From contig NETF01000173.1 in assembly GCA_002172675.1 (NCBI GenBank), forward strand, positions 65,447-97,446: a stretch of 32,000 bases of DNA, in the 5' to 3' direction. Both the position numbers and the translations under genes were made by a program. Source of the stretch: an unicellular cyanobacterium SU3. Its GTDB lineage: Bacteria; Cyanobacteriota; Cyanobacteriia; Cyanobacteriales; Microcystaceae. The notes beneath the pieces were generated by a model. The model saw nothing but the letters and a program-made list of their open reading frames with translations. It searched no databases and was not told where the DNA came from. The stretch's first letter is position 1. Each line of letters starts with the position of its first letter. Positions 3,501 through 24,913 of the stretch are shown in pieces.

Positions 3501-6468
3501 CGGAACCCTAGTTGCAGAAAACTTAATTACTGCCCCCACAGCCCCCGGTAATATTACACTCAGAGGAGATGTAACGGTACGGAACCTTGTCTTTAACGAT
3601 CGCGCCTTTGAACCTCTGTTAACGGGTCAACTGAATGCCACCCTCGGCCAAACCATTGCCATCGACTTACGGGGGAACCAAGATGTCATCGCTGCCTCCT
3701 TACAACCCTGTACCCGTCAAGATTGTCCGGCCCCTTATCTCCCCGTGGCCTTTGAACTGCGACAAGAAGCCGGGGATCTCGATCCCATCGCTGTGATCGG
3801 TCGCTTAGAAGGGGATGAGTTAGTGGCCAGAATTGAACAATTTCCCCTTGATATCTTCAAAATTGCCCCAGGGGGAGACTTTGGTGTTCCTGGGTTTTTG
3901 TCCGGGGAAGTGCAAACCGAAATCGTCATCAACCCTTACACCTTAGAAGGAAGAGGAAGATTGGTCATTGATAGACCGAGTATTGGTTTTGTTGAAGCGA
4001 CCCAACTCACCGCCGATGTCATCTATCAAGATAATATTGCCAGATTACAAAACGCCACCCTCAAGTTAGGTCAAAGTTTATATGCTGTGCAAGGATCACT
4101 CAACTTAGAGTCGGGAGACTTGGATGGCCGTTTAAATATTGATGATGGTCGTTTGCAAGACCTTTTTATTGCCCTGAAACTCTCCAGTGTGGAACGGTTA
4201 CTAGACTTATTGCAGATTCAACCCATCGACTATAAAAACGCTGAGGCTATTCCTTCTCAGTCTGTGGGACAAGATGCGGAAACCATGGCCGAAAAAGTTA
4301 ACTTGTTAGCTGTTATTGAGCAAAGAATCAAAGAATTAGCCGATGAACGAGAAAGAGGAGGAGTCCCGACGGAATTGGATTTCCGAGGAACTTTTGACTT
4401 GAATGTTGCCTTAGGGGGTACCATTTATCGACCGGATCTCAGCATTGCCTTAAGGGGTCAAAACTGGGAATGGCATCCCCAAGAACCCTATCCCGATATC
4501 ATCGAACCCTTTGGGTTAGTGATTCGAGATGAGTCAGTGATTCCCATTAATGAGGTTGCTTTGCAGGCCGATTTAACTGATAATGTTTTAACCGTTGATA
4601 GGGCTGCCATTCAAATTGATAGAACTCGACTAGCATTAGATGGTAAGTTTTCCTTACAAGAAATTGCTGCTAATTGGCAAGTTAACTATTTATCCATCGC
4701 CACCATTAATAATTTTATTGAGGTTCCCGTGGATGCAACCGGGGCGTTAAACGCTTCCGGAACCATTAGTGGTAGTCCCTTTCAACCCCAACTCCAGGGA
4801 CAATTTGCCTTTGTCGATACCACCTTTCAAGGAAGACCTTTAGGGATCACCCTTGCCGGACAATTTAGTTATGAAGGTCAACGCTTTCAACTGGCCACCA
4901 CTGAAGATTCCATTGCGGCTACTTCGATTGATATTCCCTTCCCCACTTATCCCGATAATGATAACTTTGCCGTTAGCCTTAATTTAGATACAGAAGCCTT
5001 ACAATTAGTCAGTGTGTTGACCGGTGAACAGGTTTTCTTAACCGGTGGGGAAGGACAAATTAATGCCCAAGCAACAGGAGAATTAGACTTATCTCAAGGG
5101 TTATTAGTTTCTAACTTAAATGCAGGGGGAACGATTACCTTAAATGAAACCATTTTCCAAACTGCAGCCTTACCTCAACCGTTAACGGTCACTGGAACAG
5201 TTGTCCTCAATGATCAAGGGATTAACGTTGAACAAATACGAGGAAATTTTGCTGATAGTACCCTCAATATTGCTGGCGTTTTACCCTTATTTCAACAACA
5301 AACTAATATAGAAAATCCTCTAACTGTTGCCATAGAAAGAGGAGAAATTAACTTACAAGGGTTATACCAGGGGTTAGTTGATGGCAGAGTTGTTGTAAGA
5401 GGTTCTGCTATTCAACCAGTGGTAAGCGGAGACGTACAATTAGCCAATGGTCAAATATTTATTCCCACTGAATTACAAAGTCGAGAAGAAACCGTAGCAG
5501 AAATTAATCGATGGGTGGTTCCTAGAACACGAAGACAAACCGCTAGTAATCAACCAGTTCCTTTCATGCCAAGATTACAAAATTTTGAGGTTAGCTTAAA
5601 CAACTTATTTGTTGAAGTCTTACCTCTGTTTCGGTTTGATTTTGGCGGTGACGTTACTGTTAACGGTCCTGTTAACGATCTTACAGCCCTTGAACCCGAC
5701 GGAGTTATTAGGGTCAACCGAGGGTTAGTCAATTTCTTAGATACTCGCTTTTTTATCGAACGTCGCACAGAAAATCAAATAGTCTTTAGTCCAGACCAAG
5801 GATTATTAAATCCTACCCTCGACCTAGCCATGAGAACCATTGTTTCAGAGGTTCCTGATACTAGCAAAAACTTTCGTTCAGGAGAGACAACAGAAATTCC
5901 TGATGATAGTTTGAATAAAGTGCAACGAATTGATATTAGTTTGGGCATCGATGGACCTCTTTCTCAATTACTTCCTAACTTGGGACAAGAAGGTTATCAA
6001 GTGTGTCAAATTCAAGATCCCCTTAAACCGATTCAAACTAAAGCAGCTTTATCTCAAGAAGATTTAGACAAGGTAGGAACTTGTTTACAAACCTTAGCTA
6101 ATCAAGGAAGTGTCGATGAGCAACTCTTAGGTAATCCTGTGATTAACTTAAGCAGTAGTCCTCCAAGAAGTCAAGGGGAAATCGTTCGTTTACTCGGTGA
6201 ACAAGTTCTGGTTTTAGCAGAAGCATTGCAAGGAAAAAGTACAGAACAATTGATACAATTTGGGATTGTTCAATTAGCCTTACCGATGGTCTTTCAAACC
6301 CTCATTTATGATATAGAAACCTCTGTTAGTGAGACGATAGATAGTACAGATTTTCGTATTGTTCCTTTCTTAGAAGCTATCTATGAAGTCGAAGATCAAG
6401 GTTATGTTCGTGTTTCTTATGATTACGCTTTTAATGAGTTTCGGGTTAGGTACGAGAAGCGGTTTTGA
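523..6468 (+). CDS. TamB-like translocation/assembly module protein (DUF490 C-terminus; cyanobacterial counterpart of plant TIC236)
   Basis: 1981-aa ORF with a single N-terminal hydrophobic anchor (LIAGGVLLSLGVATYGGVSYFVY). It has a very long N/Q/G/L/V-rich beta-type body. The C-terminal end ...DFRIVPFLEAIYEVEDQGYVRVSYDYAFNEFRVRYEKRF finishes on an aromatic residue, as in DUF490/TamB. Confidence 0.85.
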   Translation: MTNIPPNPPPEPSEGSTPVLQKLYNFIKKPSSLIAGGVLLSLGVATYGGVSYFVYEKLSPLLSQQLSKALEREVRVGEVESFSLNHIRIGQTSIPTTENDPDRVDLDGLKVQFNPLPLLIGQPLDIDITIDNPDLYVEQNPSGKWLGFQEREQIEDVELDLPIDIDADIELNNANVALLPNGFQELVKVDAEGTAGYTYRSNEDQEISYNLDVSILNSAIAIKGQTNIKSFQTQAELMISQLALPELTALIPNLPVTLKSGLVESNLNINVPSLEEIEGTEGNGNFQLSNVQAGLEALKVPIKLDLGLDFNNKTVQFTETSFSLGEFVTDIKGSLNWQDGYNIDVDINPFLLKNLSNIVKFKLPVNLAGEIEGKINLAGEIKNPIVTGTINNSKPLLIEKTRIEELKTVFQANLNQINLKEFQVKPTAGGNIAATGKVELGILKALEENKEINWQKMPVALGFEANVPGDELAKPYYQSPQDVSIGTLTAQGKIAGTLGDPKGKIEWAAPGAIAVSGEDISGRGSILLGGKDILIRDTVLTSNGGNITIKGLGNIEEKEWQTLITADRFSLDPFVELACSFTTCPSEVLTQTITLRDGNINVAGKLDDFSLNSLQSQGNLNLQVGQGAIALETALSQGNIAATAAVSNLPVDPYIPSLTVPVQLNRSNFNLSGSVNNLFQEGQLNVNRLNVNGNAQLLVDGSPINANIEVANGILTTVADVGTINLNPIIPNLPVQSTLVSSEVLLTGNLNSLLASLGNTPDISSFRGQAEALLTVEGSPIQVVGNLGSGQVRGVVDLSSLSLDKIVPNLPVDVQLVDGRAVVSSNVRPLLSATPDLSTAQARVNLQLATASGTINTLTRLQNNQWTSQITASNLNPNLILTQIAPQVPQTDIDDLNAQISLSGSLASLFEENAVLPINANNITVQADGQSLNARGNIFVTNPLTNPDARVNLAVQATSNLGDLPLTQLISALPVREDFLPEELQLEGVGNFDGTLVAENLITAPTAPGNITLRGDVTVRNLVFNDRAFEPLLTGQLNATLGQTIAIDLRGNQDVIAASLQPCTRQDCPAPYLPVAFELRQEAGDLDPIAVIGRLEGDELVARIEQFPLDIFKIAPGGDFGVPGFLSGEVQTEIVINPYTLEGRGRLVIDRPSIGFVEATQLTADVIYQDNIARLQNATLKLGQSLYAVQGSLNLESGDLDGRLNIDDGRLQDLFIALKLSSVERLLDLLQIQPIDYKNAEAIPSQSVGQDAETMAEKVNLLAVIEQRIKELADERERGGVPTELDFRGTFDLNVALGGTIYRPDLSIALRGQNWEWHPQEPYPDIIEPFGLVIRDESVIPINEVALQADLTDNVLTVDRAAIQIDRTRLALDGKFSLQEIAANWQVNYLSIATINNFIEVPVDATGALNASGTISGSPFQPQLQGQFAFVDTTFQGRPLGITLAGQFSYEGQRFQLATTEDSIAATSIDIPFPTYPDNDNFAVSLNLDTEALQLVSVLTGEQVFLTGGEGQINAQATGELDLSQGLLVSNLNAGGTITLNETIFQTAALPQPLTVTGTVVLNDQGINVEQIRGNFADSTLNIAGVLPLFQQQTNIENPLTVAIERGEINLQGLYQGLVDGRVVVRGSAIQPVVSGDVQLANGQIFIPTELQSREETVAEINRWVVPRTRRQTASNQPVPFMPRLQNFEVSLNNLFVEVLPLFRFDFGGDVTVNGPVNDLTALEPDGVIRVNRGLVNFLDTRFFIERRTENQIVFSPDQGLLNPTLDLAMRTIVSEVPDTSKNFRSGETTEIPDDSLNKVQRIDISLGIDGPLSQLLPNLGQEGYQVCQIQDPLKPIQTKAALSQEDLDKVGTCLQTLANQGSVDEQLLGNPVINLSSSPPRSQGEIVRLLGEQVLVLAEALQGKSTEQLIQFGIVQLALPMVFQTLIYDIETSVSETIDSTDFRIVPFLEAIYEVEDQGYVRVSYDYAFNEFRVRYEKRF

Positions 6469-9016: not shown

Positions 9017-9571
9017 ATGACACGAAACACTTATCAATGGACAATTGAACACTATCATCAAGCGATCGCTGCTGGATGTTTTGAGGATCAAGAGGTAGAA
9101 TTATTAAAAGGAGAAATTATTGTCATGACACCCGAAAGAGAAAGTCATGCTTACTATAATTCAGAATGTGCTGATTATTTAAAAGATTTACTGAAAAATC
9201 GCGCTAAAATTCGAGATGCTAAACCGATAACTTTACCTAATAATTCTGAACCCTCTCCAGATATTGCTATTGTTAAACCCTTGGGAAAAGAATATTTACA
9301 ACATCATCCTTATCCCGATGATATTTACTGGTTAATTGAGTTTTCTAAAGCAACGTTACGAAAAGATTTAACGGAGAAAAAAGCAATTTATGCAGAAGCA
9401 GAAATCAAAGAATATTGGATAGTTGATTTAAACAATTATCAGTTAAACGTTTTTAAAAACTTAAAAGAGGGTAATTACACGACAGAATTAACCTTAACTG
9501 AGGGTAATATTAGTCCTTTAGCTTTTCCTGATATCGTTATTCCTGTACAAAAAATCATCAGTATTAATTAA
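9017..9571 (+). CDS. Uma2-family (DUF820) PD-(D/E)xK endonuclease-like protein
   Basis: EHYHQAIAAGCFEDQEVELLKGEIIVMTPERESH ... PDIAIV ... LIEFSKATLRKDLTEKKAIYAEAEIKEYWIVDL follows the canonical Uma2 motif order. Confidence 0.8.
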   Translation: MTRNTYQWTIEHYHQAIAAGCFEDQEVELLKGEIIVMTPERESHAYYNSECADYLKDLLKNRAKIRDAKPITLPNNSEPSPDIAIVKPLGKEYLQHHPYPDDIYWLIEFSKATLRKDLTEKKAIYAEAEIKEYWIVDLNNYQLNVFKNLKEGNYTTELTLTEGNISPLAFPDIVIPVQKIISIN

Positions 9572-9934: not shown

Positions 9935-10606
9935 TTAACTGTTGATCCAGCTTTTTATTGCTGCGATCGCAAATGCACCAACTGGATTATCTAATGCTTT
10001 TTCTAATGCGGCAAGTCCCCCGTCTTTTGCAGCAGTAATGAGTTTATATTTTAAAGTAGGATTATTTTCTATGATTTCTATGGTTTTGATGCCTTGGGTT
10101 GTAGTATTGTTGGGATAGTCTTGAGCAACTTGTTGATAAATCGTTTGTATTTCGGTGATAGCTTCAGTTAGGTTTTGAGAATTATAGTTATAGGTTGTAT
10201 TTTTGTTTCCTGCGACGTTATCACCACTACCAGAATGGGTTTGATTAATGTTTCCTTGGGACATTGCTTTTGCCTCTACATGAATGGGTTTACTTGCTAA
10301 TTGTTTGATGATATCTAATAATTCTCTATTTTGTTGATTATTGTTTGTTATTTGAGTTGGGTTAGGGTTTATTTCTTGAATAATTTCTAGTAAAGCATAG
10401 GTGAGTCTATTTCTCTCTCTTCTAATATCTTCAGAGGATAAAATATTTAGGCGATCGCTTTTTTGTAATTGTTTTAAACTGGCAGCATGAAGGATGATTT
10501 CGTTATGATAACGAGTGTTTTCTGTTATTTGTATAAGTTGAATAATTGCAGTTTCTAAATCTCCTTGTTGGATGATGTTTTGAATATTAGTCAGTTGAGG
10601 TTTCAT
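9935..10606 (-). CDS. Two-module hypothetical protein: N-terminal helical adaptor-like domain + G/N/S/T-rich linker + conserved cyanobacterial C-terminal helical tail
   Basis: 223 aa. The start ATG overlaps the upstream stop (ATGA at 10603-10606). The N-terminus (aa 5-79) aligns with the N-terminus of the 453-aa ABC protein. The C-terminal ...NLTEAITEIQTIYQQVAQDYPNNTT...IENNPTLKYKLITAAKDGGLAALEKALDNPVGAFAIAAIKSW is a tail I recall at the ends of many cyanobacterial multidomain (e.g. pentapeptide-repeat) proteins. Confidence 0.6.
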   Translation of the reverse strand: MKPQLTNIQNIIQQGDLETAIIQLIQITENTRYHNEIILHAASLKQLQKSDRLNILSSEDIRRERNRLTYALLEIIQEINPNPTQITNNNQQNRELLDIIKQLASKPIHVEAKAMSQGNINQTHSGSGDNVAGNKNTTYNYNSQNLTEAITEIQTIYQQVAQDYPNNTTTQGIKTIEIIENNPTLKYKLITAAKDGGLAALEKALDNPVGAFAIAAIKSWINS

Positions 10607-12249
10607 TTTTCTTTTGGGAGTGATAAATGTTTAATTAATATATGTTTTATATAAGGGAATGTCAGTATATAGGCTATAGTTAGTATTAGAAAATATGTTG
10701 TGTAAAATAAATAATTTTTTTCAAATATAAATTGACCAGCAGCATTTCCAGAATATAATTCTCTTGTAATGTATATGTTAGGTGGCTGACAAGATAGTGT
10801 TGTACCATAAACCATATTCATATTGCTATTTTTCTGTAACCATAATATAATTGGAATGGGAAAAACTGCAATTATCATTTCAATTAATATTAGATTTACT
10901 ATTAAAATTATTTTGTTAAACACATACTTTTTTTGTTTTCTACTTAAATAAAATAAAAACAAAAGTAACAATAAAATAATCATGAAATAACTGGTTAATA
11001 AAATTTGTTGATTAATTAAATTTTCAACAATCTCATTTAAAATGTTTTTCCCAATAAAGACCAAAATAGGTTTAGTTAAAATTAATAATAAAAAAGCTGG
11101 AATAAATATTAAAAACATCTCTAATGAGAAATATCTAAAATATAAACAAAACCAAAATATGATAATACTAAACACTATACTTAAAAAAATAAATGATGAA
11201 TAAAAGTAGCCTAAAATTATATCATTGAAATTGAATTTGTCTTTATAAATTTGCTCAAAATAATTGTTGCATATTTCAATTGCCATTGTTAACCAGGTAT
11301 CAACTTGTTTTTTTGATTTTATTGTCTTTCCTGTATATTTATTAATCAAAGAAAATAGATTATTATATTGTCTAGAAGCAAGAGACATTAAAATTTTTTG
11401 CTTTTTTATAGAATTATAAATATTATCCATCATTTCTTTTCCTTCATATTGAGAACAAATAGGATATAGAATTTGTGTTAAAAAAGGAGATGTCAAAAAC
11501 GTTAAGAGTTTACAATCTTCAATATTATTTTCACAACTAAAATTTGTAGTGCTTTCTAAAAAATTATTTAGGAAAAAGTAATTTTCATTAAAATTGATCC
11601 AATAACTATTAGCAATAATATTTTTTTTTATTTCTTTCGATCTTATATCAAATTTCAATTGATTGACAAATCGATAATTATAATCTAATATGTTTTCATG
11701 TGCCTTTTTTTCAAATAAAAACTGTTTTTCTTTTCCTGCTTCCCTTAATGAATCCAATTGTAGTTTTTCCATATTTAATAACTTTAAAATAACTAAATCT
11801 GAAGTTACTTCAAATTCATCAATAGGATAAGTTATCATTCTTATTTTAGTAACCGTGGAAAATATTACCGCAGGTGAAGCAAGAATAATCAAACAAAGTA
11901 AATATCCAAAAATATCAAATAACCAACCTTTCTTAAAATCAACTTTACCAAATTGTTTCTCAGGATTGTAAGCAATATTATAATAAAATTGTAGAATTAC
12001 CCAACCTATAATTCCTATACTATTAATAGCAAAGAAAACTTGTCCTAATTGAATTAATGTAGTGGTATGATATAGCTTAAAACGATAAAAACAAAGACCA
12101 ATTAATAATAATAAATTAACGATTCCTACATAATAACAAAGATAGTGAATTTTCAGCGTCCATAACCTCGGATGATTTAGTAAATAGTTTTGATCTATCC
12201 GTTGCAGGAAATTAGGATTAAGAGCTTTTTTAATAGATTTTAGTATCAT
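10603..12249 (-). CDS. Orphan polytopic membrane protein (~8 predicted TM segments split by a ~200-aa soluble insert)
   Basis: 548-aa uninterrupted ORF in ~20% G+C DNA. By-eye hydrophobic segments: 3 in aa ~30-135, 4 in aa ~345-475 and 1 near aa ~515-535. A K/N/E/F-rich soluble region spans aa ~135-345. I recognise no family signature. Confidence 0.65.
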   Translation of the reverse strand: MILKSIKKALNPNFLQRIDQNYLLNHPRLWTLKIHYLCYYVGIVNLLLLIGLCFYRFKLYHTTTLIQLGQVFFAINSIGIIGWVILQFYYNIAYNPEKQFGKVDFKKGWLFDIFGYLLCLIILASPAVIFSTVTKIRMITYPIDEFEVTSDLVILKLLNMEKLQLDSLREAGKEKQFLFEKKAHENILDYNYRFVNQLKFDIRSKEIKKNIIANSYWINFNENYFFLNNFLESTTNFSCENNIEDCKLLTFLTSPFLTQILYPICSQYEGKEMMDNIYNSIKKQKILMSLASRQYNNLFSLINKYTGKTIKSKKQVDTWLTMAIEICNNYFEQIYKDKFNFNDIILGYFYSSFIFLSIVFSIIIFWFCLYFRYFSLEMFLIFIPAFLLLILTKPILVFIGKNILNEIVENLINQQILLTSYFMIILLLLLFLFYLSRKQKKYVFNKIILIVNLILIEMIIAVFPIPIILWLQKNSNMNMVYGTTLSCQPPNIYITRELYSGNAAGQFIFEKNYLFYTTYFLILTIAYILTFPYIKHILIKHLSLPKEK

Positions 12250-12310
12250 AACTTAAGTAAGTAAAATTAATTATAAAATAGCGATCATAAGATAACAATC
12301 AAATTTTTTT

Positions 12311-12330
12311 CTCCTGACTCCTGACTCCTC
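12311..12330. repeat. Tandem heptamer CTCCTGA x2 plus CTCCTC in the ABC-to-membrane-gene spacer
   Basis: ctcctga ctcctga ctcctc read directly. On the coding (minus) strand this is GAGGAGTCAGGAGTCAGGAG followed by A7. Confidence 0.5.
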
Positions 12331-12339
12331 TCTTATTAC

Positions 12340-13701
12340 TTAACTCTCAAATAACTGACGAGTTGATTGACTAATATCTCTAAAATACTTAATAGAAACT
12401 TCATGATTTGCTAAAACTTCCAAAAATTCTGCACTGCTAACAGAAATAGGAACATAAAGAATAAAATTGCTACCAGATTCCTTAATCTTACTACAACCTA
12501 TTGGTTTCAACAGATTCATTAATAATTCTTGACTAACATCACAATTAATCTCATATATATTACAATTTCTATCCTTCTGAAACTCCGACATCAAACCATT
12601 ATATTTTGCTTCTCCATCCTTCAAAAAGATAATTTTATCTGCAATACTTTCTACCTCATATAAATGCTGTGAGCTAATAATTGCAGTTAATGGATCTTTC
12701 TGACTATTAAGAATACCTCTTAAATTTTGTAAAAATTTCCCTTGAGCATTAATATCTAAATTAGCTAATGGTTCATCAAAAACTAATAATTTTGGTTTCC
12801 AAACTAATGCTCTCGCTAAAGAAAAACGAGTTTTATAACCACTGGAAATCTCGTTCCATTTTGCTTGAGCATATTCTTCTAAACCTAACCGACTAATTAT
12901 CCAATCAACGTCATCAATATTATCTTGTCCTTTAATTCCGTTAATGGTTGCAGTAAAATGTAAATTAGTCATTAATGACCCATACCATTTCGGTAACTCT
13001 TGAGGAATATAAGCAATTTTTTGTTTAATCAAATACCAATCTTTTTTCTTATTTTTCATTAAAAGTGGATAAGTCAACTCTCCTTCACTAATAGCTAAAT
13101 CACCAGAAATTATCCGTAAAAGCGTTGTTTTACCGTTACCATTTTCTCCGACAACTGCCGTTATTTCTCCTAAATTTAATTCAATACTAATAGGAGATAA
13201 ACAAAAAATTACTCTTTTACTTTTATAAACTTTACTAATATTAATCCCTTTAACAACGGTTTGCGTTGTTTCTTCTTGTTTCCGTTTTTCCTTCAAAAAG
13301 TTCTCTTTTGCTATTTCATATTTAGTTCTAAAATCTTGAGAAGACTTTTGTTCTTGATTTTCTGAAGTATTATTTATAACTGATGTTTCAGAAATTGAAT
13401 TATTATAATCTAAATTACGTTGATTATATTCATCAATAATAGAATCCTTAAACTCTAAAATTTGTACTATTAACCTTCTAACTTCTAAATTATACTTATC
13501 ATACGCTATCACCCCTAAACGATTTTGATCATTTAAAAGTTTGTATTGATTGTTTATAACAATAACTTCTCTGCGTTTAGCACGATCAATAGAAAATTCT
13601 CTCTGAAAATCCATCAATTGCGTAGTAGCAGCATCTAAGTTATTATTAGTAATAAGTTCTTCAATTTCTTCTGATCTTGATAAAGGATCTTGAGCAGACA
13701 T
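12340..13701 (-). CDS. ABC transporter ATP-binding protein (ABC-2/DrrA-NatA-like NBD with C-terminal DUF4162-like domain) carrying an extra ~95-aa N-terminal helical domain
   Basis: Walker A GENGNGKTT, Q-loop IAYIPQE, divergent signature ISSGYKTRF, Walker B LLVFDEP, D-loop ANLD, H-switch SSQHL. The C-terminal ~80 aa ends ...STRQLFES. The NBD starts only at aa ~150, preceded by a helical domain (aa ~10-92) and an N/S/E/Q/K-rich linker. Confidence 0.85.
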   Translation of the reverse strand: MSAQDPLSRSEEIEELITNNNLDAATTQLMDFQREFSIDRAKRREVIVINNQYKLLNDQNRLGVIAYDKYNLEVRRLIVQILEFKDSIIDEYNQRNLDYNNSISETSVINNTSENQEQKSSQDFRTKYEIAKENFLKEKRKQEETTQTVVKGINISKVYKSKRVIFCLSPISIELNLGEITAVVGENGNGKTTLLRIISGDLAISEGELTYPLLMKNKKKDWYLIKQKIAYIPQELPKWYGSLMTNLHFTATINGIKGQDNIDDVDWIISRLGLEEYAQAKWNEISSGYKTRFSLARALVWKPKLLVFDEPLANLDINAQGKFLQNLRGILNSQKDPLTAIISSQHLYEVESIADKIIFLKDGEAKYNGLMSEFQKDRNCNIYEINCDVSQELLMNLLKPIGCSKIKESGSNFILYVPISVSSAEFLEVLANHEVSIKYFRDISQSTRQLFES

Positions 13702-14308: not shown

Positions 14309-14632
14309 TTAGCAATAGCACCGAACATCTTGACCACATTCATCCGCTAAATAACATAACGCACGAAATCTTAAGGCAACAACCTCTTCATAGAAGGGGT
14401 TGAGTTTGCATAATGGGGGAATATGACCAATTTTACGACCAAAGAGATAAATATCTTGTTCAAATGGACATTGTACTGGAATCAGACGACACAAGAAATG
14501 TGCAGTGGACTCTTTTTTTATTTCTACGTTATTGAGATATTGACGGAGTGGTTGTAAGTAATCTTTAGCTTTACCTTGGTTAAATCCAATTTTACTGTTA
14601 TTAACTTGCTGATTGCTTGGAAAACAGACCAT
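14309..14632 (-). CDS. Mo-dependent nitrogenase C-terminal domain (Mo-nitro_C) family protein
   Basis: ...CRLIPVQCPFEQDIYLFGRKIGHIPPLCKLNPFYEEVVALRFRALCYLADECGQDV matches the conserved Cys-rich core of this family as I recall it. Confidence 0.7.
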   Translation of the reverse strand: MVCFPSNQQVNNSKIGFNQGKAKDYLQPLRQYLNNVEIKKESTAHFLCRLIPVQCPFEQDIYLFGRKIGHIPPLCKLNPFYEEVVALRFRALCYLADECGQDVRCYC

Positions 14633-17880: not shown

Positions 17881-18177
17881 ATGTTAGAAACCCTAAGAAA
17901 AGCCTATCATAATAATCCTAATCGAGCGATGGCCATTGGACTGGGGGCTTTAGTTGTTACTCCTGTGGTTCTTCCTTTACTCAAACCGGCGGCCAAAGCG
18001 ACAGTTAAAACCGGTGTTATTCTCTACGAAAAAACAAAAGGAACCCTAGCAGAAGCAGGAGAAATGATGGCTGATCTCGTGGCAGAAGCTAAAGCAGAAG
18101 TGATTGCAGAACAAGCTGAAAAGACATCCCTAATGGCTTCTAGTTCTGAAAGCCAGAACGAAAGTTCAGTAAGCTGA
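17881..18177 (+). CDS. DUF5132-like small protein (one hydrophobic segment, then an amphipathic A/E/K helix)
   Basis: 98 aa. AIGLGALVVTPVVLPLLKPAAKATVKTGVILYEKTKGTLAEAGEMMADLVAEAKAE resembles DUF5132, from memory. Confidence 0.55.
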   Translation: MLETLRKAYHNNPNRAMAIGLGALVVTPVVLPLLKPAAKATVKTGVILYEKTKGTLAEAGEMMADLVAEAKAEVIAEQAEKTSLMASSSESQNESSVS

Positions 18178-18271
18178 GTTACAGTGCTACGCACAAGGCA
18201 AGAGGCAAAAGTAAGTTAATATCTTACCCTTGATGCGTAGTGCTATAGAAGTGAGAAATTGAATGTACACG

Positions 18272-18292
18272 ACAGAGGCCAGCGGCCTCTGT
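18272..18292. terminator. Perfect 9-bp GC-rich stem-loop between convergent genes (possible bidirectional terminator)
   Basis: ACAGAGGCC (18272-18280), loop AGC, GGCCTCTGT (18284-18292). Neither side has a clear U-tract. Confidence 0.4.
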
Positions 18293-18304
18293 TCAATTAT
18301 GTTG

Positions 18305-18571
18305 CTATTGCTTACTTGAAGAATTAGAATAAGTCTTGAGAGGCTTTTTAGAAGGGGTTTCTAGGCTTTGGGGAGAAAGAGATAATCCTGTTTTAATAAT
18401 AGACTTAAGAACCGGTCGTCCGAATTTAACGGCTGCAGGTAGGGCAAGGGTTCCCAGCAAAATTGCACCTAAGCCTAACACGCCAGAAGAATCACCTTTT
18501 TGATGATGATCTTCGATGATCTCTTTAACGTGCAAGGTTAATACAGATTTATCCCAGTGTATCGGTGACAT
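18305..18571 (-). CDS. Small membrane-anchored protein, paralogue-like to the DUF5132-like ORF at 17881
   Basis: 88 aa, starting 17 nt after the ATPase stop (same operon). LGLGAILLGTLALPAAVKFGRPVLKSIIKTGLSL parallels IGLGALVVTPVVLPLLKPAAKATVKTGVILY of the 17881 ORF. Confidence 0.5.
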   Translation of the reverse strand: MSPIHWDKSVLTLHVKEIIEDHHQKGDSSGVLGLGAILLGTLALPAAVKFGRPVLKSIIKTGLSLSPQSLETPSKKPLKTYSNSSSKQ

Positions 18572-18588: not shown

Positions 18589-20754
18589 TTAGTTGTTTTC
18601 AAGTTTATGTTGAACGAGAGGACGTAAACTATTCAAACCCGCCACGATCGCAGTTCCGTTATGAACCAGGGTGGCTAACAACGGGTTCAGTCCCACCGTG
18701 GTGGCTAACCCCAAAGCAGCAATATTCGGGGCAACCACCATTAAGGTATTTTGGGTGATTAACTGTTTTGTTTGTTGGGCAATGGCAATGGCCTCTAATA
18801 AGTCTTTTAAGTCATTGTTCATTAACACCACATCGGCGGTTTCTCTGGCAATATCCGAACCGTTTTCAAAGGAAATGGACACATCTGCATAGGCTAAAGC
18901 CACAGAATCGTTGAGTCCATCCCCCACAAAAGCGACGGTTTTACCGCCATGGTGCAAGTTTTGGACAATTTTCGCCTTATCTTCGGGGAATGCCTCGGCA
19001 TGGACTTGAGAAGAGGGGATATTTAACTGTTTGGCTACCTCTGTCGCCCGTTTTTGCTGGTCTCCTGTGAGCAGATGCACTTCCATTCCATAGTCTCGTT
19101 GCAAGGAATGGATCAATTTGGCACTTTGGGGACGCAAGGGATCACTATAGTAAATGATTCCCTGAAACACACCATCGCAGGCGACATACACAGGGGACAA
19201 CCCTGCTGTTTCTTGTTGCTTTACTGTTTCAATAAGGGTTACTCCTTTACTAATCAATAACTTCTCACTCCCCACTAAAACCGTTTGTCCTTCGATGGTG
19301 GCTACCATGCCTAAGCCTACCTCATAGTCCCAAGCTTGACGAGGTAAGATGTCTATGTTTTTCTTGGTAGCATAATGGGTAATGGCTTCGGCGACGGGGT
19401 GAGTAATGCGTTGTTCGGCGGATGCAGCCAGTTGCAGGACTTTATATTCATCAAACCCTTGAGCAACGGTTTCTATCTGGACAACCTGGATGTTTCCTTG
19501 GGTTAAGGTTCCTGTTTTATCGAAGACAATGGTATCAATTTCTGATAATAGTTCTAAGGTGCGCCCACTACGGACTAAAATGCCATGACGGGTGGTATGA
19601 TTTAAGGCTCCTAAAAAGGCAGTGGGCATAGAAACTCGAATACCCGTGACAAAATCTAAGGTAAGAATAGAAGCCACTCGACTGGGATCTCTAGTAACTG
19701 TTAAAATAATGGCTGATAATAATAATGAAGGCATAATTAACTGTTCAGCTAAGTTCGCCGCATAGTTCGCCATTCGGGTGTCATGAACGGGAGCTTTTTT
19801 TAATAATTCAAAGCTGGCAGCCGCACGAGTATTATGTCCAATTCGCTCTGATTTAATGCGTATTTCTCCCGATCTAACTAAGGTTGAAGCATAAACATAA
19901 GTATTTTCTTCGGCCACAATAGGCATTGATTCACCGGTTAATTGTTGTTGATCAATGGTGGCATTTCCTTTAACCACAATGCCATCGACGGGTATTTTTT
20001 CCCCTGGGTAAACAACGACAATTTCTTCTCTTTCAACAGTATGACTTTCAATAGAAATAATGCTTCCATTTCGTTCTACCCAAGCAAAGTTGCCTATAGT
20101 ATCTAATAAATTGCTGGTTTTAGATTCAGTGGAGCGAGCAGTTTTTTCTCTAATAATATCTCCCAGTTCATGAAGGGTAATGACTAAAGAAGGGGTAACT
20201 ATTTTTCCTTGTAACCCACTAAATATCAAAGCTAACGTATCGATACAATCAATATTAAGTTTTTGCTGATTAACAACACTATTATAAGCCCTTTGTACCA
20301 CAGGAAAAGCAGCCCGAAGTAACATTAAAATAGCTATCAATCTTAAACCAGGTAGTTTTATCTTTAGGGAAGTTAAAGAGAAAAGTGTAGCTAACCCTGG
20401 ATAGGTTAGGCTTGACCATTCCTCTAGCTTTTTTTGGTTATTACTATCTTTTTTTTGGCGAAAACTGTTGGCAGTTTCTGCTTGGCTAATACTCAAGAGA
20501 ATCTGATGATTAATATTGAGTTTTTTCGTTGTTTCATAATGAATAATAACAGAAGCAGACCAACAATTTAAACGTACCTTTTTTATTCCCTCTACTGTGA
20601 TCAAATGTTCCTTAAGAAGCATAGCAAAGGATTGATCATAACTTAAACGATGCACGCGAATCCTTACCCTTCCAGGAACTTGATGAATTATAAAAGGTAG
20701 GGATTCGATTTTATTTTTCAACCTTGTATTTCCGAGGGGTTTACTCATTATCAT
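18589..20754 (-). CDS. P1B-like P-type ATPase with N-terminal HMA2-like domain, lacking any CPx/xPC motif
   Basis: Motifs present: LTGESMP (A-domain TGES), DKTGTLTQG (phosphorylation site), ITHPVAEAI (N-domain HP), LLTGD, GDGLNDSVALAYADVSISF (hinge). The M4 stretch before DKTGT reads LTLDFVTGIRVSMPTAF, where CopA-type pumps have CPCALGLATPTA. The N-terminal VPGRVRIRVHRL...VRLNCWSASVIIHYE has no CxxC. Confidence 0.9.
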   Translation of the reverse strand: MIMSKPLGNTRLKNKIESLPFIIHQVPGRVRIRVHRLSYDQSFAMLLKEHLITVEGIKKVRLNCWSASVIIHYETTKKLNINHQILLSISQAETANSFRQKKDSNNQKKLEEWSSLTYPGLATLFSLTSLKIKLPGLRLIAILMLLRAAFPVVQRAYNSVVNQQKLNIDCIDTLALIFSGLQGKIVTPSLVITLHELGDIIREKTARSTESKTSNLLDTIGNFAWVERNGSIISIESHTVEREEIVVVYPGEKIPVDGIVVKGNATIDQQQLTGESMPIVAEENTYVYASTLVRSGEIRIKSERIGHNTRAAASFELLKKAPVHDTRMANYAANLAEQLIMPSLLLSAIILTVTRDPSRVASILTLDFVTGIRVSMPTAFLGALNHTTRHGILVRSGRTLELLSEIDTIVFDKTGTLTQGNIQVVQIETVAQGFDEYKVLQLAASAEQRITHPVAEAITHYATKKNIDILPRQAWDYEVGLGMVATIEGQTVLVGSEKLLISKGVTLIETVKQQETAGLSPVYVACDGVFQGIIYYSDPLRPQSAKLIHSLQRDYGMEVHLLTGDQQKRATEVAKQLNIPSSQVHAEAFPEDKAKIVQNLHHGGKTVAFVGDGLNDSVALAYADVSISFENGSDIARETADVVLMNNDLKDLLEAIAIAQQTKQLITQNTLMVVAPNIAALGLATTVGLNPLLATLVHNGTAIVAGLNSLRPLVQHKLENN

Positions 20755-20782: not shown

Positions 20783-21379
20783 CTAACTCATGCTAGTAAC
20801 GGTTTCAGTTCCTTTAGCTTGATTCAAGATACTAAGTAGTCGTAACCCAAGCTCCATATCAGATACGCCTTCCCCATCATAATTAATGATCACTGAGGCA
20901 GCAGAGCGGTTTACACGAACTTTAATAACACAATCATCATTGTTTAATAACTGTTGTAATCGTTGAACAAACTCTGGGTCTTCTGCTAATTGAGGAATTT
21001 TAATACGAATCCGCCCAGGGACAGAATGAACAATTTGATATTCACTTTCAGCTTCATCATTGGCGTTTTTTACGCCCTTATTTTGTTGGGTATTTTGTGT
21101 TAATGGGGGTTGATTTTTGATAGTCGCAAAAACTTGTCGACACAGACTAGCTACCGCTAAATTAACCAGTAACGCATTCGCCCCACGGAGTTGAAAGCGG
21201 CTGGTAACAAACACCCCAATTAGAACAGGAACAACCATTTCAATTTCGTTATGCTGTCTTAAATAGTTAACTAATTGTTCCTCGGTTTCCCCAATTTGTT
21301 CGCCGATGGTTTTATTATAGTCTTGCTCTTTAGCTACGGCTCCTAAAACATTATCTATCATGGGAGTTTCTCCTATCAA
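20783..21379 (-). CDS. HMA2-like domain protein (hydrophobic N-terminal half + C-terminal cysteine-free HMA-like domain)
   Basis: The C-terminus VHSVPGRIRIKIPQLAEDPEFVQRLQQLLNNDDCVIKVRVNRSAASVIINYD parallels the ATPase N-terminus (VPGRVRIRVHRL...VRLNCWSASVIIHYE). The stop lies 28 nt before the ATPase start. The alternative start at 21361 (MIDNVLG) cannot be excluded. Confidence 0.65.
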   Translation of the reverse strand: MIGETPMIDNVLGAVAKEQDYNKTIGEQIGETEEQLVNYLRQHNEIEMVVPVLIGVFVTSRFQLRGANALLVNLAVASLCRQVFATIKNQPPLTQNTQQNKGVKNANDEAESEYQIVHSVPGRIRIKIPQLAEDPEFVQRLQQLLNNDDCVIKVRVNRSAASVIINYDGEGVSDMELGLRLLSILNQAKGTETVTSMS

Positions 21380-21497
21380 TTCAGTTATGTTGTGAGATAA
21401 TCTAATCTCCGCTCTATCCTTATTCTTAAAGCAGTTAAAAATAGAGCTTTCTACTTTAATTATAAAGGATAATTCAATACCATTGATTAATAGTTAA

Positions 21498-21512
21498 TCA
21501 TAATTATTCTCA
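21498..21512. promoter_or_regulatory. Fur-box-like 7-1-7 motif (copy A)
   Basis: TCATAATTATTCTCA matches the classical 7-1-7 Fur consensus TGATAATNATTATCA at 12/14 specified positions. It sits between the divergent HMA2/ATPase operon and the rhodanese gene. Confidence 0.3.
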
Positions 21513-21578
21513 ATAATATTTGATGATGACTTTCAAGAGTTGAGAAGCGATCGCCACTATTCTTTACCATCTCTTAAC
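21501..21578. repeat. 78-nt conserved intergenic element, copy A
   Basis: taattattctcaataatatttgatgatgactttcaagagttgagaagcgatcgccactattctttaccatctcttaac. It matches 24653-24730 at 72/78, ungapped and in the same orientation. Confidence 0.85.
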
Positions 21579-21696
21579 TTTACCCTTTTACCTTTTTCCT
21601 AGCAGCATAGTGTTTGTCAATCTTTTATAACAAAATTTTACAAACTGTTAATATTCTGTTACATTAGAAAAGTAGCAACTTCACACAAAAGTTTTT

Positions 21697-22120: not shown

Positions 22121-24127
22121 TTAAAAATTACTGAGCAAGTTAGCCCCTTGATAAAAAATAAAACTAACCACCCAAGCCAACACCAAACCATAAACCACAG
22201 AGAAAAAGGTAAAACTAACACTTTTAGCTTCACTGCGAATGGTGGCTAAAGTTGCCACACAGGGACTATAAAGCAAACAAAACAACATGAAACTATAGGC
22301 TTGAATAGGTGAAATAGTTTGAGCAATAGTAGCTTGAATGGCACTCGGATCAGATAAGCTGTAAATGGTTGCTAAAGATCCCACCACAATCTCTTTAGCA
22401 ATAAAGCCGAAAATTAAAGCAATAGTCAATTCTTCAGGAATGCCAATGGGATCGAGAACTGGAGCGAAAAACTCCCCTAAACGCACCGCATAACTTTGAT
22501 CTCCAGTACCTGGTAAGTTGGTTAACAATAAAACCGCTAAAACCCCAACAACGATCCAAACCCCGGCTTGTTGGAGAAACGCTTTAACCGCATCGCCTCC
22601 TGTCACCATCCCAAAAATTACGGGAACCCCTACCGCTAAGGTTAACCCTGTGCTACCAATGGGGTTGGCCGTTCCTTGGGGTAAGTTAGACATTAACCAA
22701 ACCCCCACAACTCCGGCTGTAATAAACCCAGTAGCCCGACGTAAAAACACTCTTAACTCTCCCCAACCTCTCAACCAGATTTGTTTTAAGGTAGGAAAGC
22801 GATAAGGAGGTAACTCGATAACAAAGGGTTCTTTGCTGGCAAACTGTCCTTTCATTAAAAAGCCTGTGACGAATGCCACTAAAAAGCTGACGATGTAGAG
22901 AGAGAGTAACACCAACGGCCCCCAGGTGCGATCAAATAAGGCATCGATGATAAAAACAAACACCGTTAACCGTGCTGAACACAGGGCAAAAGGCATGATT
23001 AAAATGGTTAAAAAACGCAAAGATCGCGATCGCATTACCCTTGCACCCATAACAGCAGGAATATTACAACCAAAGCCCATAATTAATAGGACAAAACTGC
23101 GACCATCTAACCCTAAACGGTACATGATCGAGTCCATCATATAAGCCGCACGGGAAAAGTAGCCACTGTCTTCAATAATGGCCATCATAAAGAAAAACAC
23201 CACCACCAAGGGAACGAAAGAAATAACGGTGGCTAACCCTCCATAGAGTCCGTCAACAATAAATCCTCGTAAAAAATCGGGTAATCCTGCGGTCAAGGGG
23301 TCAATCGCTATTGTTTGAAACCACGTGGTCAAAGCATCAGCAACATCTTGAGAGGGTAGCCCCACCTCCCAGACAAACTGAAACATGAGGTAAATGGTTA
23401 GGAAAAATAGGGGTAAACCGATAATAGGATGCAATAATAAGCTATCAAGACGTTGGGTAAAGGTTCGATACATTTGAGAGGGCATTTCAACGGTTTCGTT
23501 TAACACCTCTGCAATCACTGAGGAAGGAATTTGTTCATGGGCTTCTATTTTTAACGTCAAGTCTTCGGGAGACGTAACCCTTTGACTTTGGCGTAAGACA
23601 TGACTAATCTTGTGCTTCGCTTGCACAATGCCTCGGTTATATTTGGCACTGACTAAGGCGACTGGCATCCCTAGCTTTTCTTCAAGTTTCTCAGCATCGA
23701 TTTTGATGTTGAAATGGTCTGCTTCGTCTGCCATATTGAGAACTAACATTCCCGGTATGCCCAACGCTTTCACCTGTAGGGCTAATCGAATCTGGCGATC
23801 GATCTGTCCTGCATTCAACACCACTAAGACCAGGTTAACCGGAAAGCGTTCAAAAAAACCTTGTACCACTCGTTCATCTTCCGAGTAGCCTTCTAAATCA
23901 TAAATTCCCGGTAAGTCCACAAACTCAACGGTTTCCCCGTTAAGCTCAACCTCTGCTTCTAATAAGTCCACTGTTACCCCTGGCCAGTTCCCCACAAACG
24001 CACTGGCTCCGGTAATCTGGTTAAATAGGGTCGATTTCCCCACATTGGGCATCCCCATGACACTAACGCGCTTGGTGGTTAGTTCTGAGGATAGGGTTGT
24101 TCCCCCTGGGCTATGACAATGGGTCAT
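22121..24127 (-). CDS. feoB: Ferrous iron transporter FeoB
   Basis: N-terminal G-domain: G1 GMPNVGKSTLFN, G3 DLPG, G4 NMAD. It is followed by a large polytopic permease domain. The gene lies directly downstream of feoA. Confidence 0.95.
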   Translation of the reverse strand: MTHCHSPGGTTLSSELTTKRVSVMGMPNVGKSTLFNQITGASAFVGNWPGVTVDLLEAEVELNGETVEFVDLPGIYDLEGYSEDERVVQGFFERFPVNLVLVVLNAGQIDRQIRLALQVKALGIPGMLVLNMADEADHFNIKIDAEKLEEKLGMPVALVSAKYNRGIVQAKHKISHVLRQSQRVTSPEDLTLKIEAHEQIPSSVIAEVLNETVEMPSQMYRTFTQRLDSLLLHPIIGLPLFFLTIYLMFQFVWEVGLPSQDVADALTTWFQTIAIDPLTAGLPDFLRGFIVDGLYGGLATVISFVPLVVVFFFMMAIIEDSGYFSRAAYMMDSIMYRLGLDGRSFVLLIMGFGCNIPAVMGARVMRSRSLRFLTILIMPFALCSARLTVFVFIIDALFDRTWGPLVLLSLYIVSFLVAFVTGFLMKGQFASKEPFVIELPPYRFPTLKQIWLRGWGELRVFLRRATGFITAGVVGVWLMSNLPQGTANPIGSTGLTLAVGVPVIFGMVTGGDAVKAFLQQAGVWIVVGVLAVLLLTNLPGTGDQSYAVRLGEFFAPVLDPIGIPEELTIALIFGFIAKEIVVGSLATIYSLSDPSAIQATIAQTISPIQAYSFMLFCLLYSPCVATLATIRSEAKSVSFTFFSVVYGLVLAWVVSFIFYQGANLLSNF

Positions 24128-24148: not shown

Positions 24149-24385
24149 TTAGTTAACATTGGGTTCTATTTCTATGCCTTCTGCTTCATGCCGTCGCATG
24201 GCAACTTCTGTGGTCATGCCTACACGCACATGAAGGGGCCCATTCCACCAAGCTTTACGTAACAGTTTGACTTCTTGCCCGGCAGTGAAACCCATTGCTT
24301 CTAGGCGACGGGATAATCCAGGATCATCGGTATTGAGGGTACGAATAATTCCTGAATGTCCTGGTTTGAGGTTTAATAATTTCAT
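24149..24385 (-). CDS. feoA: FeoA-family protein
   Basis: 78 aa. LKPGHSGIIRTL...RRLEAMGFTAGQEVKLLRKA..GPLHVRV is SH3-like FeoA. It ends 21 nt upstream of feoB. Confidence 0.9.
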   Translation of the reverse strand: MKLLNLKPGHSGIIRTLNTDDPGLSRRLEAMGFTAGQEVKLLRKAWWNGPLHVRVGMTTEVAMRRHEAEGIEIEPNVN

Positions 24386-24649
24386 GGTGAATTCTCAAAA
24401 ATTGACACAGTATTAATCAATAATTTCTTTCATTAACTGAGTTTAATGAGGTCGAATCATCAACGTTTTTCTCAATCTTGAGAAAAGCATTATTTAGTAA
24501 TCAATTGTTTGACAGAGAAAACTCGAATTAAACAACGTAAATATTGTTTAATTTATTTCAAATAGCGATGTCCGCAGTCTTAAACTCACTATCTTTGCAG
24601 AGGCTTGAGGATAGTCAGCCCCATAGATTAATTGTTGTCCTGAAGCTAA

Positions 24650-24664
24650 TAATAACTATTCTCA
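24650..24664. promoter_or_regulatory. Fur-box-like 7-1-7 motif (copy B)
   Basis: TAATAACTATTCTCA matches TGATAATNATTATCA at 11/14. It lies ~265 nt upstream of the feoA start, in a 528-bp intergenic region. Confidence 0.3.
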
Positions 24665-24730
24665 ATAATATTTTATAATGACTTTCAAGAGTTGAGAAGC
24701 GATCGCCACGATTCTTTACTATCTCTTAAT
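24653..24730. repeat. 78-nt conserved intergenic element, copy B
   Basis: taactattctcaataatattttataatgactttcaagagttgagaagcgatcgccacgattctttactatctcttaat. It matches 21501-21578 at 72/78. Confidence 0.85.
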
Positions 24731-24913
24731 ATAAAAATTTTTACTTCTCTGCTATGTCTTCATTCTATTGTCTTTAACATTAGTTTACATAAGTGATTAA
24801 AGCAATTATTTCTTAAAATTTTGTTAGCAAATATGGGTCAACTCTGAAAGCTACACTAGAGTTAACAGAACCAAGAAAGATTCGGTAAAAAATAGTAACT
24901 TTTTATACCAAAA

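Follow-up and report, generated by a model that had tools for sequence, protein, structure and literature searches.

The window analysed here is a stretch of 32,000 nucleotides (nt) from the unicellular cyanobacterium SU3 (Cyanobacteriota, Microcystaceae; GenBank assembly GCA_002172675.1, contig NETF01000173.1, positions 65,447 to 97,446), and the gene in question encodes a P1B-type ATPase, called the pump throughout. On the minus strand the genes feoA, feoB, partner 1, pump and partner 2 follow one another in this order, and the gene of a third partner is convergent with that of partner 2. The features of the locus, numbered from the first letter of the window, are these (aa, amino acids):

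17881..18177, plus strand: partner 3, a 98-aa DUF5132 protein of the 'a' type (Pfam DUF5132, 63.9 bits)
18271..18293, no strand assigned: GC-rich terminator-like hairpin between the convergent DUF5132 genes (10-pair stem with 6 GC pairs, then a T-rich tail)
18305..18571, minus strand: partner 2, an 88-aa DUF5132-like small membrane protein of the 'b' type (pattern in common with DUF5132)
18589..20754, minus strand: the pump, a P1B-type ATPase of 721 aa in the CoBaHMA/arginine-rich (R-rich) clade 'group A' (open reading frame, Pfam and TIGR01525)
18622..18750, minus strand: M5-M6 segment of the pump, aa 669-711, with N677 in M5 and H698-N699-G700-T701 and N708 in M6 (conservation table)
19618..19665, minus strand: M4 ion-site segment of the pump, aa 364-379, LTLDFVTGIRVSMPTA, with D367, T370, G371, R373 and P377 (aligned to the CPC of CopA and ZntA)
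20422..20688, minus strand: N-terminal CoBaHMA (HMA_2) domain of the pump, aa 23-111 (Pfam PF19991, 37.1 bits, cutoff 30)
20783..21379, minus strand: partner 1, a CoBaHMA membrane-associated protein of about 192-198 aa, 198 aa here (Pfam HMA_2, 43.6 bits, cutoff 30)
21492..21594, minus strand: 103-nt promoter-region repeat, copy 1, upstream of the partner-1/pump operon (direct repeat family D1, 85% identity)
22121..24127, minus strand: feoB, ferrous iron importer (Pfam FeoB_N, Gate and FeoB_C)
24149..24385, minus strand: feoA, 78 aa (matches FeoA of related loci; its positional counterpart in the Picosynechococcus locus L003 has Pfam FeoA)
24644..24746, minus strand: 103-nt repeat, copy 2, upstream of feoA (overlaps a -35/-10-like pair at 24698..24670)

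The pump contains the Pfam domains HMA_2 (aa 23-111), E1-E2_ATPase and HAD Hydrolase and reaches 488.6 bits against TIGR01525, the NCBIfam model of P1B heavy-metal ATPases, whose cutoff is 346.25. A preliminary description of this stretch had called the protein P1B-like and catalytically intact, with an N-terminal HMA-like domain that lacks CxxC and with three cysteines (NCW, DCI, ACD), none beside a proline, and each of these statements held. A regular-expression check locates TGES at 273, DKTGT at 412, HP at 452, TGD at 563 and GDGLND at 611, and finds the cysteines at C64 (LNCWS), C170 (IDCID) and C526 (VACDG) and no CPx, xPC or CxxC anywhere in the 721 residues. DKTGT, TGES and GDGxND are invariant in the orthologs. 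As the P-type catalytic machinery is complete, the pump should hydrolyse ATP via the usual aspartyl-phosphate cycle, and it is with high confidence that we take it for a functional cation pump of group A, the clade delimited below.

The N-terminal domain belongs to a type named CoBaHMA by Benzerara, Gaschignard et al., an HMA fold marked by a beta0 His, a conserved patch of basic residues and the lack of the metal-binding CxxC (PMC8890360, bioRxiv 10.1101/2024.07.07.602159). Both the pump and partner 1 score above the cutoff for this domain, and in the pump H24, R29, R31 and R61 are conserved and CxxC is absent. Its R-rich strand reads HQVPGRVRIRV (aa 24-34), H24, G28, R29, R31 and R61 are nearly invariant among the orthologs, and aa 18-112 carry a net charge of +7. 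In the AlphaFold2 (AF2) model this domain adopts a beta-alpha-beta fold with a predicted local distance difference test score (pLDDT) of about 83. The model as a whole, at moderate confidence (mean pLDDT 68), has eight membrane helices (MA, MB and M1-M6) with limits at 117-131, 137-161, 168-180, 186-219, 327-354, 357-388, 649-686 and 691-720, and the PDB structures closest to it in a Foldseek search are CopA and ZntA.

The peculiarity of the protein lies in M4, where a P1B-ATPase is expected to carry a Cys-containing tripeptide. At the stretch that holds the CPC of CopA the pump reads DFVTGIRVSMPTA. The HMMER alignment with Archaeoglobus fulgidus CopA ('LDFVTGIRVSMPTA' for the pump, 'VACPCAFGLATPTA' for CopA) is gap-free, and MAFFT with Escherichia coli CopA and ZntA yields the same register, F368, V369 and T370 standing opposite C, P and C. 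The replacement of CPC by FVT and the loss of the proline, both noticed earlier, therefore stand, and an indel that would restore CPx is ruled out by gap-free alignments across M4. In the AF2 model the M4 helix nevertheless breaks at L366-D367 despite the absent proline, at low-to-moderate confidence. Judged by its sequence, the M4 motif fits none of the subgroups P1B-1 to P1B-7, as had been stated.

A HMMER search was run against cluster representatives (50% clustering) and the best 150 were sorted by motif. About 74 of them form group A, with D[FYL]x[TS]GxR in M4 and xNG[ST] in M6, and are 30-74% identical to the pump (mean 40%); another 40 are of the FezB type, D[YF]SCAxK with HNxxT (mean identity 33%), and the few CPC sequences are CtpC-like. 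In a neighbour-joining (NJ) tree with E. coli CopA and ZntA as the root, one clade (73/100 bootstrap) unites group A with eight degenerate variants and includes no FezB or CPC sequence; its sister is a 33-member FezB clade. Within it the cyanobacterial orthogroup with DFVTGIR and HNG is supported by 100/100 bootstrap. The nearest homologs of the pump come from Crocosphaera (73-91%), followed by Microcystis, Limnoraphis, Trichodesmium, Okeania and Picosynechococcus (about 60%), with hundreds of cyanobacterial proteins in all; the best genome match is Crocosphaera chwakensis CCY0110 (92%), which makes the host a unicellular cyanobacterium of the Crocosphaera type. A window protein with the Mo-nitrogenase C-terminal domain agrees with a diazotrophic Crocosphaera as host. 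When one genome per species was scanned, relatives with the M4 and M6 patterns of the orthologs, given below, were found in 414 species genomes. Outside the cyanobacteria group A occurs in Nitrospira, myxobacteria and methanotrophs.

The pump itself has DFVTGIR in M4 and HNGTA in M6. In 24 orthologs, down to 60% identity, ILTLDFVTGIRVSxPTAFLG of M4 and PN...GLNPLxATxxHNG(T/S)A..AGLNSLRPL of M5-M6 are invariant. Conservation of the site was computed over the 74 group A and 40 FezB representatives and compared with CopA and ZntA:

D367: Asp in 100% of group A and 100% of FezB; Ala in CopA, Gly in ZntA
Position 370: Thr in 85% of group A, Cys in 100% of FezB; Cys in both CopA and ZntA
Position 371: Gly in 100% of group A, Ala in 78% of FezB; Ala in both CopA and ZntA
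Position 373: Arg in 82% of group A, Lys in 85% of FezB; Gly in CopA, Val in ZntA
N677 (M5): Asn in 91% of group A and 95% of FezB; Asn in CopA, Lys in ZntA (the built-in counter-ion position K693)
Position 698: Asn in 61%, Ser in 27% and His in 8% of group A, His in 95% of FezB; aligns with ZntA D714
N699: Asn in 84% of group A and 95% of FezB; not conserved in CopA and ZntA

Within group A the FezB-like His of M6 (position 698) is kept only in the Feo-linked cyanobacterial orthogroup to which the pump belongs. The pump residues that match the metal-binding sites of CopA and ZntA are D367, T370, N677, H698, N699 and T701, which offer oxygen and nitrogen donors only, and we infer that D367, T370, N677, H698, N699 and possibly T701 are the metal ligands. 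A conserved cationic side chain, R373 (Lys in FezB), follows D367 by six residues and may serve as a built-in counter-charge. As the M4 and M6 segments are invariant in the orthologs and relatives are present in 414 genomes, the thiol-free site is neither chance nor decay.

Some of this has been tabulated before. Grant et al. (bioRxiv 10.1101/2020.01.10.902569), in their Supplementary Table 1, use signature motif and position in the tree to assign P1B-ATPases to coloured groups: FezB (DYSCAxK/HNxxT), a CtpC-like group (ACPCAxG/HNxS), FezH (ACPCATV/HIxHT) and a fourth group that has a colour code, #FDFEE9, in place of a formal name. The fourth group lists Cyanothece ATCC 51142 cce_1010 with 'DFVTGIR / HNGTA / HHIPGRVRFRIH', together with Microcystis C789_1114 and Anabaena variabilis Ava_0992, and the main text notes that related P1B-ATPases too carry the R-rich motif. 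All three are orthologs of the pump, whose own set, DFVTGIR / HNGTA / HQVPGRVRIRV, places it in this group; the pump thus falls outside FezB both in our NJ tree and by colour, and the FezH motifs are absent from it. The phylogenetic placement called for by the preliminary description therefore gives a separate clade beside FezB, and the sequence peculiarity, tabulated by Grant et al., is already on record. The locus tags cce_1010, Ava_0992, tll0657 and others are absent from the searchable main texts, and searches of the PDB by sequence and with Foldseek turned up no structure of either group A or FezB. The apparent novelties are the conserved four-gene module, its linkage to Feo and DUF2202 in the pump orthogroup, the retained His of M6 and the promoter element common to feoA and the pump.

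The pump stands at the centre of a conserved module of four genes, which comprises a CoBaHMA membrane protein, the CoBaHMA-P1B ATPase and two small DUF5132 membrane proteins. Partner 1 ends 28 nt before the start codon of the pump; its true start is likely the ATG at 21361, and its acidic N-terminus is followed by a hydrophobic hairpin that is conserved (ILPVxxGxFVTSRFQLRGANALLVNL) and, over aa 113-190, by the CoBaHMA domain with HSVPGRIRIKIP at the C-terminus. Partner 2 begins 17 nt past the pump stop codon. On its own it gives zero Pfam matches, and it has GLGAxxxxxxxP..K..P..K..IKTG in common with DUF5132; most loci have it downstream of the pump. The N-terminus of its family is strongly conserved (MSxIHWDKSVLTxH; MSLIHWDKSVLTFHLKEIxED), and the 'a' type lacks it. 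Partner 3, of the 'a' type, has an N-terminal transmembrane segment, a basic KPAAKATVKTG and, over aa 55-82, an acidic Glu/Ala-rich (E/A) helix, AEAGEMMADLVAEAKAEVIAEQAE, with a net charge of -5; the acidic helix is conserved in the DUF5132 family. Neighbourhoods were counted in 80 related loci, of which 39 have full flanks. A CoBaHMA protein lies directly upstream of the pump in 68 of 74 loci, a DUF5132 gene downstream in 68 of 76, and two DUF5132 genes are present in 55 of 68.

The module is not confined to this setting. In several Oscillatoriales loci a second pair lies a few kb off the module, a longer CoBaHMA protein (about 330-350 aa) being followed by another DUF5132 gene:

Locus L015, 17592-18902: second CoBaHMA/DUF5132 pair
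Locus L016, 7116-8490: second CoBaHMA/DUF5132 pair
Locus L017, 15521-16894: second CoBaHMA/DUF5132 pair
Locus L023, 3239-4728: second CoBaHMA/DUF5132 pair

Nitrospira moscoviensis (L090, 6468-10417) has two DUF5132 genes, an HMA_2 protein and a group A pump, adjoining PhoX, a CYTH-CHAD protein of the polyphosphate-granule type, a PhoB-like regulator and PstSCAB-PhoU; in a further locus outside the cyanobacteria (L091, 5216-12879) two pumps lie in tandem, together with three HMA_2 proteins. Plasmids carry paralogs of group A that are 41-44% identical to the pump and have no Feo beside them. That of Nostoc flagelliforme pNFSY07 (L088, 1408-18124) is accompanied by DUF5132, DUF1345 and an MntP-like Mn efflux gene, the same locus also holding a second P-type ATPase and cax, and that of Gloeothece PCC 7822 (L086) by a 522-aa HMA2 protein and a lipid kinase. 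As the module occurs in Nitrospira and as plasmid paralogs are free of Feo, group A pumps seem to have DUF5132 and CoBaHMA proteins as partners in general. The link to Feo is younger than the core module, and the transported ion probably differs between group A subclades.

In the pump orthogroup itself that link is frequent. Here feoB lies 0.74 kb upstream of partner 1 on the same strand, with a rhodanese gene between feoB and the module on the other strand that is not conserved (1 of 39 loci) and is not counted as part of the system. FeoB is found within 10 kb of the pump in 24 of 39 loci (62%), across many cyanobacterial orders and in several arrangements, and a Feo gene ends less than 1.5 kb upstream on the same strand in 23 of 55 (42%); with a genome size of about 5 Mb, about 1% of random 20-kb windows are expected to hold feoB by chance. 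In 7 of 39 loci there is also a ferritin/rubrerythrin-like DUF2202 gene, and among the related loci compared no Mn or Ca gene is conserved beside the orthogroup. The order is feoA-feoB-feoC-CoBaHMA-pump-DUF5132 in Microcystis and feoAB ... DUF5132-CoBaHMA-pump-DUF2202 in Picosynechococcus (L003). The latter order, feoAB-DUF5132-CoBaHMA-pump-DUF2202, recurs in a contig of a Sphingobacterium thalpophilum metagenome-assembled genome (MAG; L038, 60% identity to the pump), which is probably cyanobacterial sequence mis-binned into a Bacteroidota MAG. In two Pleurocapsales-type loci a P1B-4 type ATPase (M6 IGHEGSTLLVTLNGLR) adjoins FeoC and the module (L043, 917-2884; L053, 230-2125), so that two different candidate Fe(II) pumps lie side by side.

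A 103-nt element is common to the region upstream of the partner-1/pump operon (copy 1) and to that upstream of feoA (copy 2). It holds AATATTATTGAGAATA(A/G)TTAT, of which the rest of the window has only one site, with 2 mismatches, and copy 1 also holds HIP1 GGCGATCGC and AATATTATTGAGAATAATTAT. Crocosphaera chwakensis and Cyanothece BG0011 keep part of copy 1 at the corresponding place, and a relative of copy 2 sits upstream of feoA in L006. As the element is shared and parts of it are kept in relatives, co-regulation of Feo and the pump in this genome is well supported. A k-mer enrichment over 65 upstream regions detected no conserved operator.

Based on these data we lean towards a reading in which the pump, with its partner proteins, moves Fe(II), for export or for sequestration; that the ion is iron, which we infer from synteny and from the sister clade, is a little better than an even call. 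The substrate had been described as not predictable from the known P1B subgroups, a view that can be softened here, as the gene context, through the linkage to Feo, points to iron. We propose that the pump would remove Fe(II) from the cytoplasm at the expense of ATP into the periplasm, the thylakoid lumen or a dedicated vesicle, and would act downstream of Feo import in storage, in trafficking or as a safety valve. The CoBaHMA domains could dock with their basic face onto anionic lipid, as has been suggested in the CoBaHMA literature, or onto the acidic E/A helix of DUF5132. By analogy with CtpC, which is stabilised or clustered by PacL proteins, DUF5132 may do the same for the pump; the E/A repeats of PacL proteins are what binds the metal-binding domains of both CtpC and CtpG (PMC13460109).

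Several observations weigh against this reading. The case for iron is drawn from synteny and the sister clade only, and no experimental work on, or substrate assignment for, any member of group A was found in the literature. An all-oxygen/nitrogen site would equally suit Mn(II), Co(II), Zn(II), Mg(II) or Ca(II), and the AF2 model that depicts it is only moderate, its pLDDT of 68 falling low in M4. No Feo gene is present within 10 kb in 15 of 39 loci, including the closest relative (L004), and the paralogous subclades adjoin MntP-like, cax or Pst/PhoX/CHAD genes, that is, genes for Mn, Ca and phosphate, so that group A is not uniformly iron-linked. The partner families differ from the Fez proteins: the small DUF5132 proteins have GxG and those of Fez have GxxxG, FezC has the reverse domain order of partner 1, and near two FezB-like plasmid matches the neighbouring gene is annotated YtxH. 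Homology between DUF5132 and PacL was not detected by a profile search seeded with 19 DUF5132 sequences, which returned 353 matches; the best 120 of the 353 all have DUF5132 as their only Pfam domain, and the named ones are all cyanobacterial. Fur control of the 103-nt element is a weak hypothesis from the sequence. The 10-nt core TTCTCAATAA of the Anabaena FurA consensus AAATAAATTCTCAATAAAT recurs in the reverse complement of AATATTATTGAGAATA(A/G)TTAT, with identity at 13 of 19 positions overall; when 70 related loci were scanned upstream for that consensus (up to 5 mismatches), 19% matched and 9% of controls did, too small a difference for a call, and the E. coli Fur box (up to 3 mismatches) has 0 matches in the window.

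The same pump and module could instead serve another hard divalent cation (Mn2+, Ca2+, Mg2+, Co2+ or Zn2+), the Feo neighbourhood reflecting a general clustering of metal-homeostasis genes, an explanation that we find doubtful and yet the strongest of the alternatives. The predicted site, having no thiolate, fits the chemistry of Mn2+ or Ca2+, Nostoc plasmid paralogs lie beside an MntP-like Mn efflux gene and cax, the Ca-carbonate marker ccyA has CoBaHMA and DUF5132 genes on its flanks in Microcystis, and CtpC of the same R-rich superclade has been assigned to Zn and, earlier, to Mn. Against it, the orthogroup of the pump has FeoB within 10 kb in 62% of loci and a Feo gene co-directional just upstream in 42%, ferritin-like DUF2202 genes recur near it, the FezB-type His of M6 that other subclades lack is kept, and conserved Mn or Ca neighbours are missing. 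A further explanation accepts iron and makes the module the cyanobacterial counterpart of fez, loading Fe(II) into a lipid-bounded iron(-phosphate) storage compartment in place of plain export. This is unlikely in our estimation, even though group A is sister to FezB, which ferrosomes require, and the components are alike, namely an R-rich/CoBaHMA pump, a second R-rich membrane protein, small single-pass proteins, DUF2202 and adjacency to Feo; moreover, a simple exporter in the plasma membrane would gain nothing from a promoter element that the importer has too, and the Nitrospira module lies beside the polyphosphate/phosphate genes CHAD, PhoX and Pst. Such granules, however, have not been reported for these cyanobacteria in the searchable literature, ferrosomes are described mainly in anaerobes (Grant et al.), and the partner families are not homologous to FezA, FezC, FezE or FezG as far as tested. 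Since Fur-regulated Fe(II) efflux pumps exist (FrvA), co-regulation with uptake needs no compartment. A broader version, tentative and less likely still, would have the whole R-rich/CoBaHMA P1B superclade, with CoBaHMA and DUF5132 proteins, load hard cations into membrane-bounded mineral or storage compartments; the Feo-linked orthogroup would then give oxygenic cyanobacteria, with Crocosphaera, Trichodesmium and other marine diazotrophs among them, a ferrosome-like Fe(II)(-phosphate) store, paralogs would supply Ca, Mn and polyphosphate inclusions, and the change from Cys to Thr would make the site oxygen-tolerant and selective for hard metals.

The likeness to the HEGxT...N motif of P1B-4 Co/Fe(II) pumps, pointed out in the preliminary description, survives as a matter of position, H698 lying where HEGxT has its first residue and ZntA has D714. 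P1B-4 pumps do export Fe(II) according to the literature, and true P1B-4 genes (IGHEGST) adjoin the module in L043 and L053. The nearest subgroup, however, is P1B-6 (FezB): the M4 of the pump has no SPC, its M6 is HNGTA and not HEGxT, the P1B-4 crystal structure 7qbz is a poorer match (E 4.5e-50) than CopA (1e-65), and the best 150 representatives have group A, FezB or CPC motifs bar a few degenerate variants, with SPC in M4 or HEGxT in M6 in none. As the adjacent true P1B-4 gene is a distinct gene, and as membership of P1B-4 is refuted by the M4 and M6 motifs and the clade, a P1B-4-like pump is highly improbable here. Least credible of all is a pump-like protein that has lost its canonical site and no longer transports ions, its role being, for example, one of regulation or scaffolding. 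Neither the CPx cysteines nor the M4 proline is left, and a few deep members of the clade have a degenerate M4 in which even the Asp is missing; yet the polar residues of M4-M6 are invariant in orthologs down to 60% identity, the catalytic motifs are intact, D367 is conserved in 100% of the 74 and 40 representatives, and FezB, likewise without the proline, is functional in vivo (Grant et al.).

Of the systems described so far the pump works most like FezB and possibly like the pair of CtpC and PacL, although it fails the tests of motif and clade that define FezB. Both have an N-terminal R-rich/CoBaHMA-type domain in place of the CxxC HMA domain, no proline at the CPx position, an invariant Asp just ahead of the motif with a basic residue at +6 (Lys in FezB, Arg in the pump), an Asn in M5 and His-Asn in M6. 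According to Grant et al., components of fez clusters include DUF2202, FeoA, R-rich proteins and small membrane proteins; a FezB cluster has, like the pump module, a second R-rich membrane protein, small membrane proteins and sometimes DUF2202, and often lies beside Feo. They differ in M4, where D-[YF]-S-C-A of FezB corresponds to DFVTG (Ser to Val, Cys to Thr, Ala to Gly), leaving no Cys in the site of the pump. In M6, where FezB has HNxxT (N-X18-H-N-X-(S/T)), the HNGTA of the pump fits H-N-x-(S/T), whereas +4 is Ala (Thr in 95% of FezB) and the spacing from the M5 Asn is 20 instead of 18. Identity is about 33%, with a separate clade and colour group, and GxxxG small proteins with FezC/DUF4405 stand against DUF5132 and the hairpin/C-terminal CoBaHMA protein, so that strictly only DUF2202 and the adjacency to Feo are common to both clusters and the pump is not FezB. 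FezB hosts are mainly anaerobes, whereas those of the pump are oxygenic phototrophs. The CtpC-PacL1 'effluxosome' of Mycobacterium tuberculosis (PMC13460109) likewise pairs an R-rich superclade P1B pump, with a non-CxxC N-terminus and H-N-x-(S/T) in M6, with an adjacent gene for a small single-pass membrane protein that has an acidic Glu/Ala-rich cytoplasmic helix. In that system PacL, which consists of a transmembrane domain with GxxG, E/A repeats and a disordered region, binds the N-terminal domain of CtpC through its helix and stabilises or clusters the pump (PMC13460109). CtpC, however, keeps CPC in M4 and handles Zn, with Mn also proposed (PMC13460109), and the likeness of PacL to DUF5132 is an analogy by description, without detected homology.

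More distant systems share parts of the design. With CopA and ZntA the pump has in common the fold, the 8-helix membrane domain, the catalytic motifs, the (A/S)xPTA of M4, the Asn/Lys position of M5 and the NxLR tail of M6, but at 27-29% identity FVT replaces CPC, the N-terminal domain is basic and Cys-free, and M4 has the additional conserved Asp and Arg. The P1B-4 exporters PfeT, FrvA and CoaT resemble it in the possible Fe2+ substrate and in the His that opens the M6 motif, and differ by SPC, HEGxT and clade. The calcyanin/ccyA loci (PMC8890360, bioRxiv 10.1101/2024.07.07.602159) have the same HMA_2/CoBaHMA domain with beta0 His and basic residues, and their CoBaHMA proteins co-occur with DUF5132 proteins; they differ in concerning intracellular Ca-carbonate, with calcyanin and cax and with neither the pump orthogroup nor Feo.

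Substrates of P1B-ATPases are usually assigned from the Cys-Pro motif of M4, and group A keeps an Asp/Thr/Asn/His site with neither thiol nor proline, whose conservation shows it to be maintained under strong selection in about 400 cyanobacterial species genomes. If iron is the substrate, the pump would fill a missing step in cyanobacterial iron handling, namely ATP-driven exit or sequestration of Fe(II) coupled to Feo, in bloom formers (Microcystis) and in those hosts (Crocosphaera, Trichodesmium, Okeania) in which marine nitrogen fixation is limited by the iron economy, and it would extend ferrosome-type biology from anaerobes to oxygenic phototrophs. The pairing of a basic CoBaHMA domain with an acidic-helix DUF5132 protein gives two families of unknown role a testable function and may link them to the loci of intracellular carbonate biomineralisation.

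Elsewhere in the window, at 9935-13701 on the minus strand, two EAD11 (Effector-associated domain 11) proteins are encoded, one of them fused to an ABC-type ATPase, beside a 548-aa orphan with no Pfam match; this AT-rich island (22-29% GC at about 10-14 kb) looks like an acquired defence or NTPase island. The remaining genes of note are:

523-6468, plus strand: TamB-like protein, 1981 aa
6697-6951, plus strand: BrnA-type antitoxin
9017-9571, plus strand: Uma2-family nuclease
14309-14632, minus strand: protein with a Mo-nitrogenase C-terminal domain

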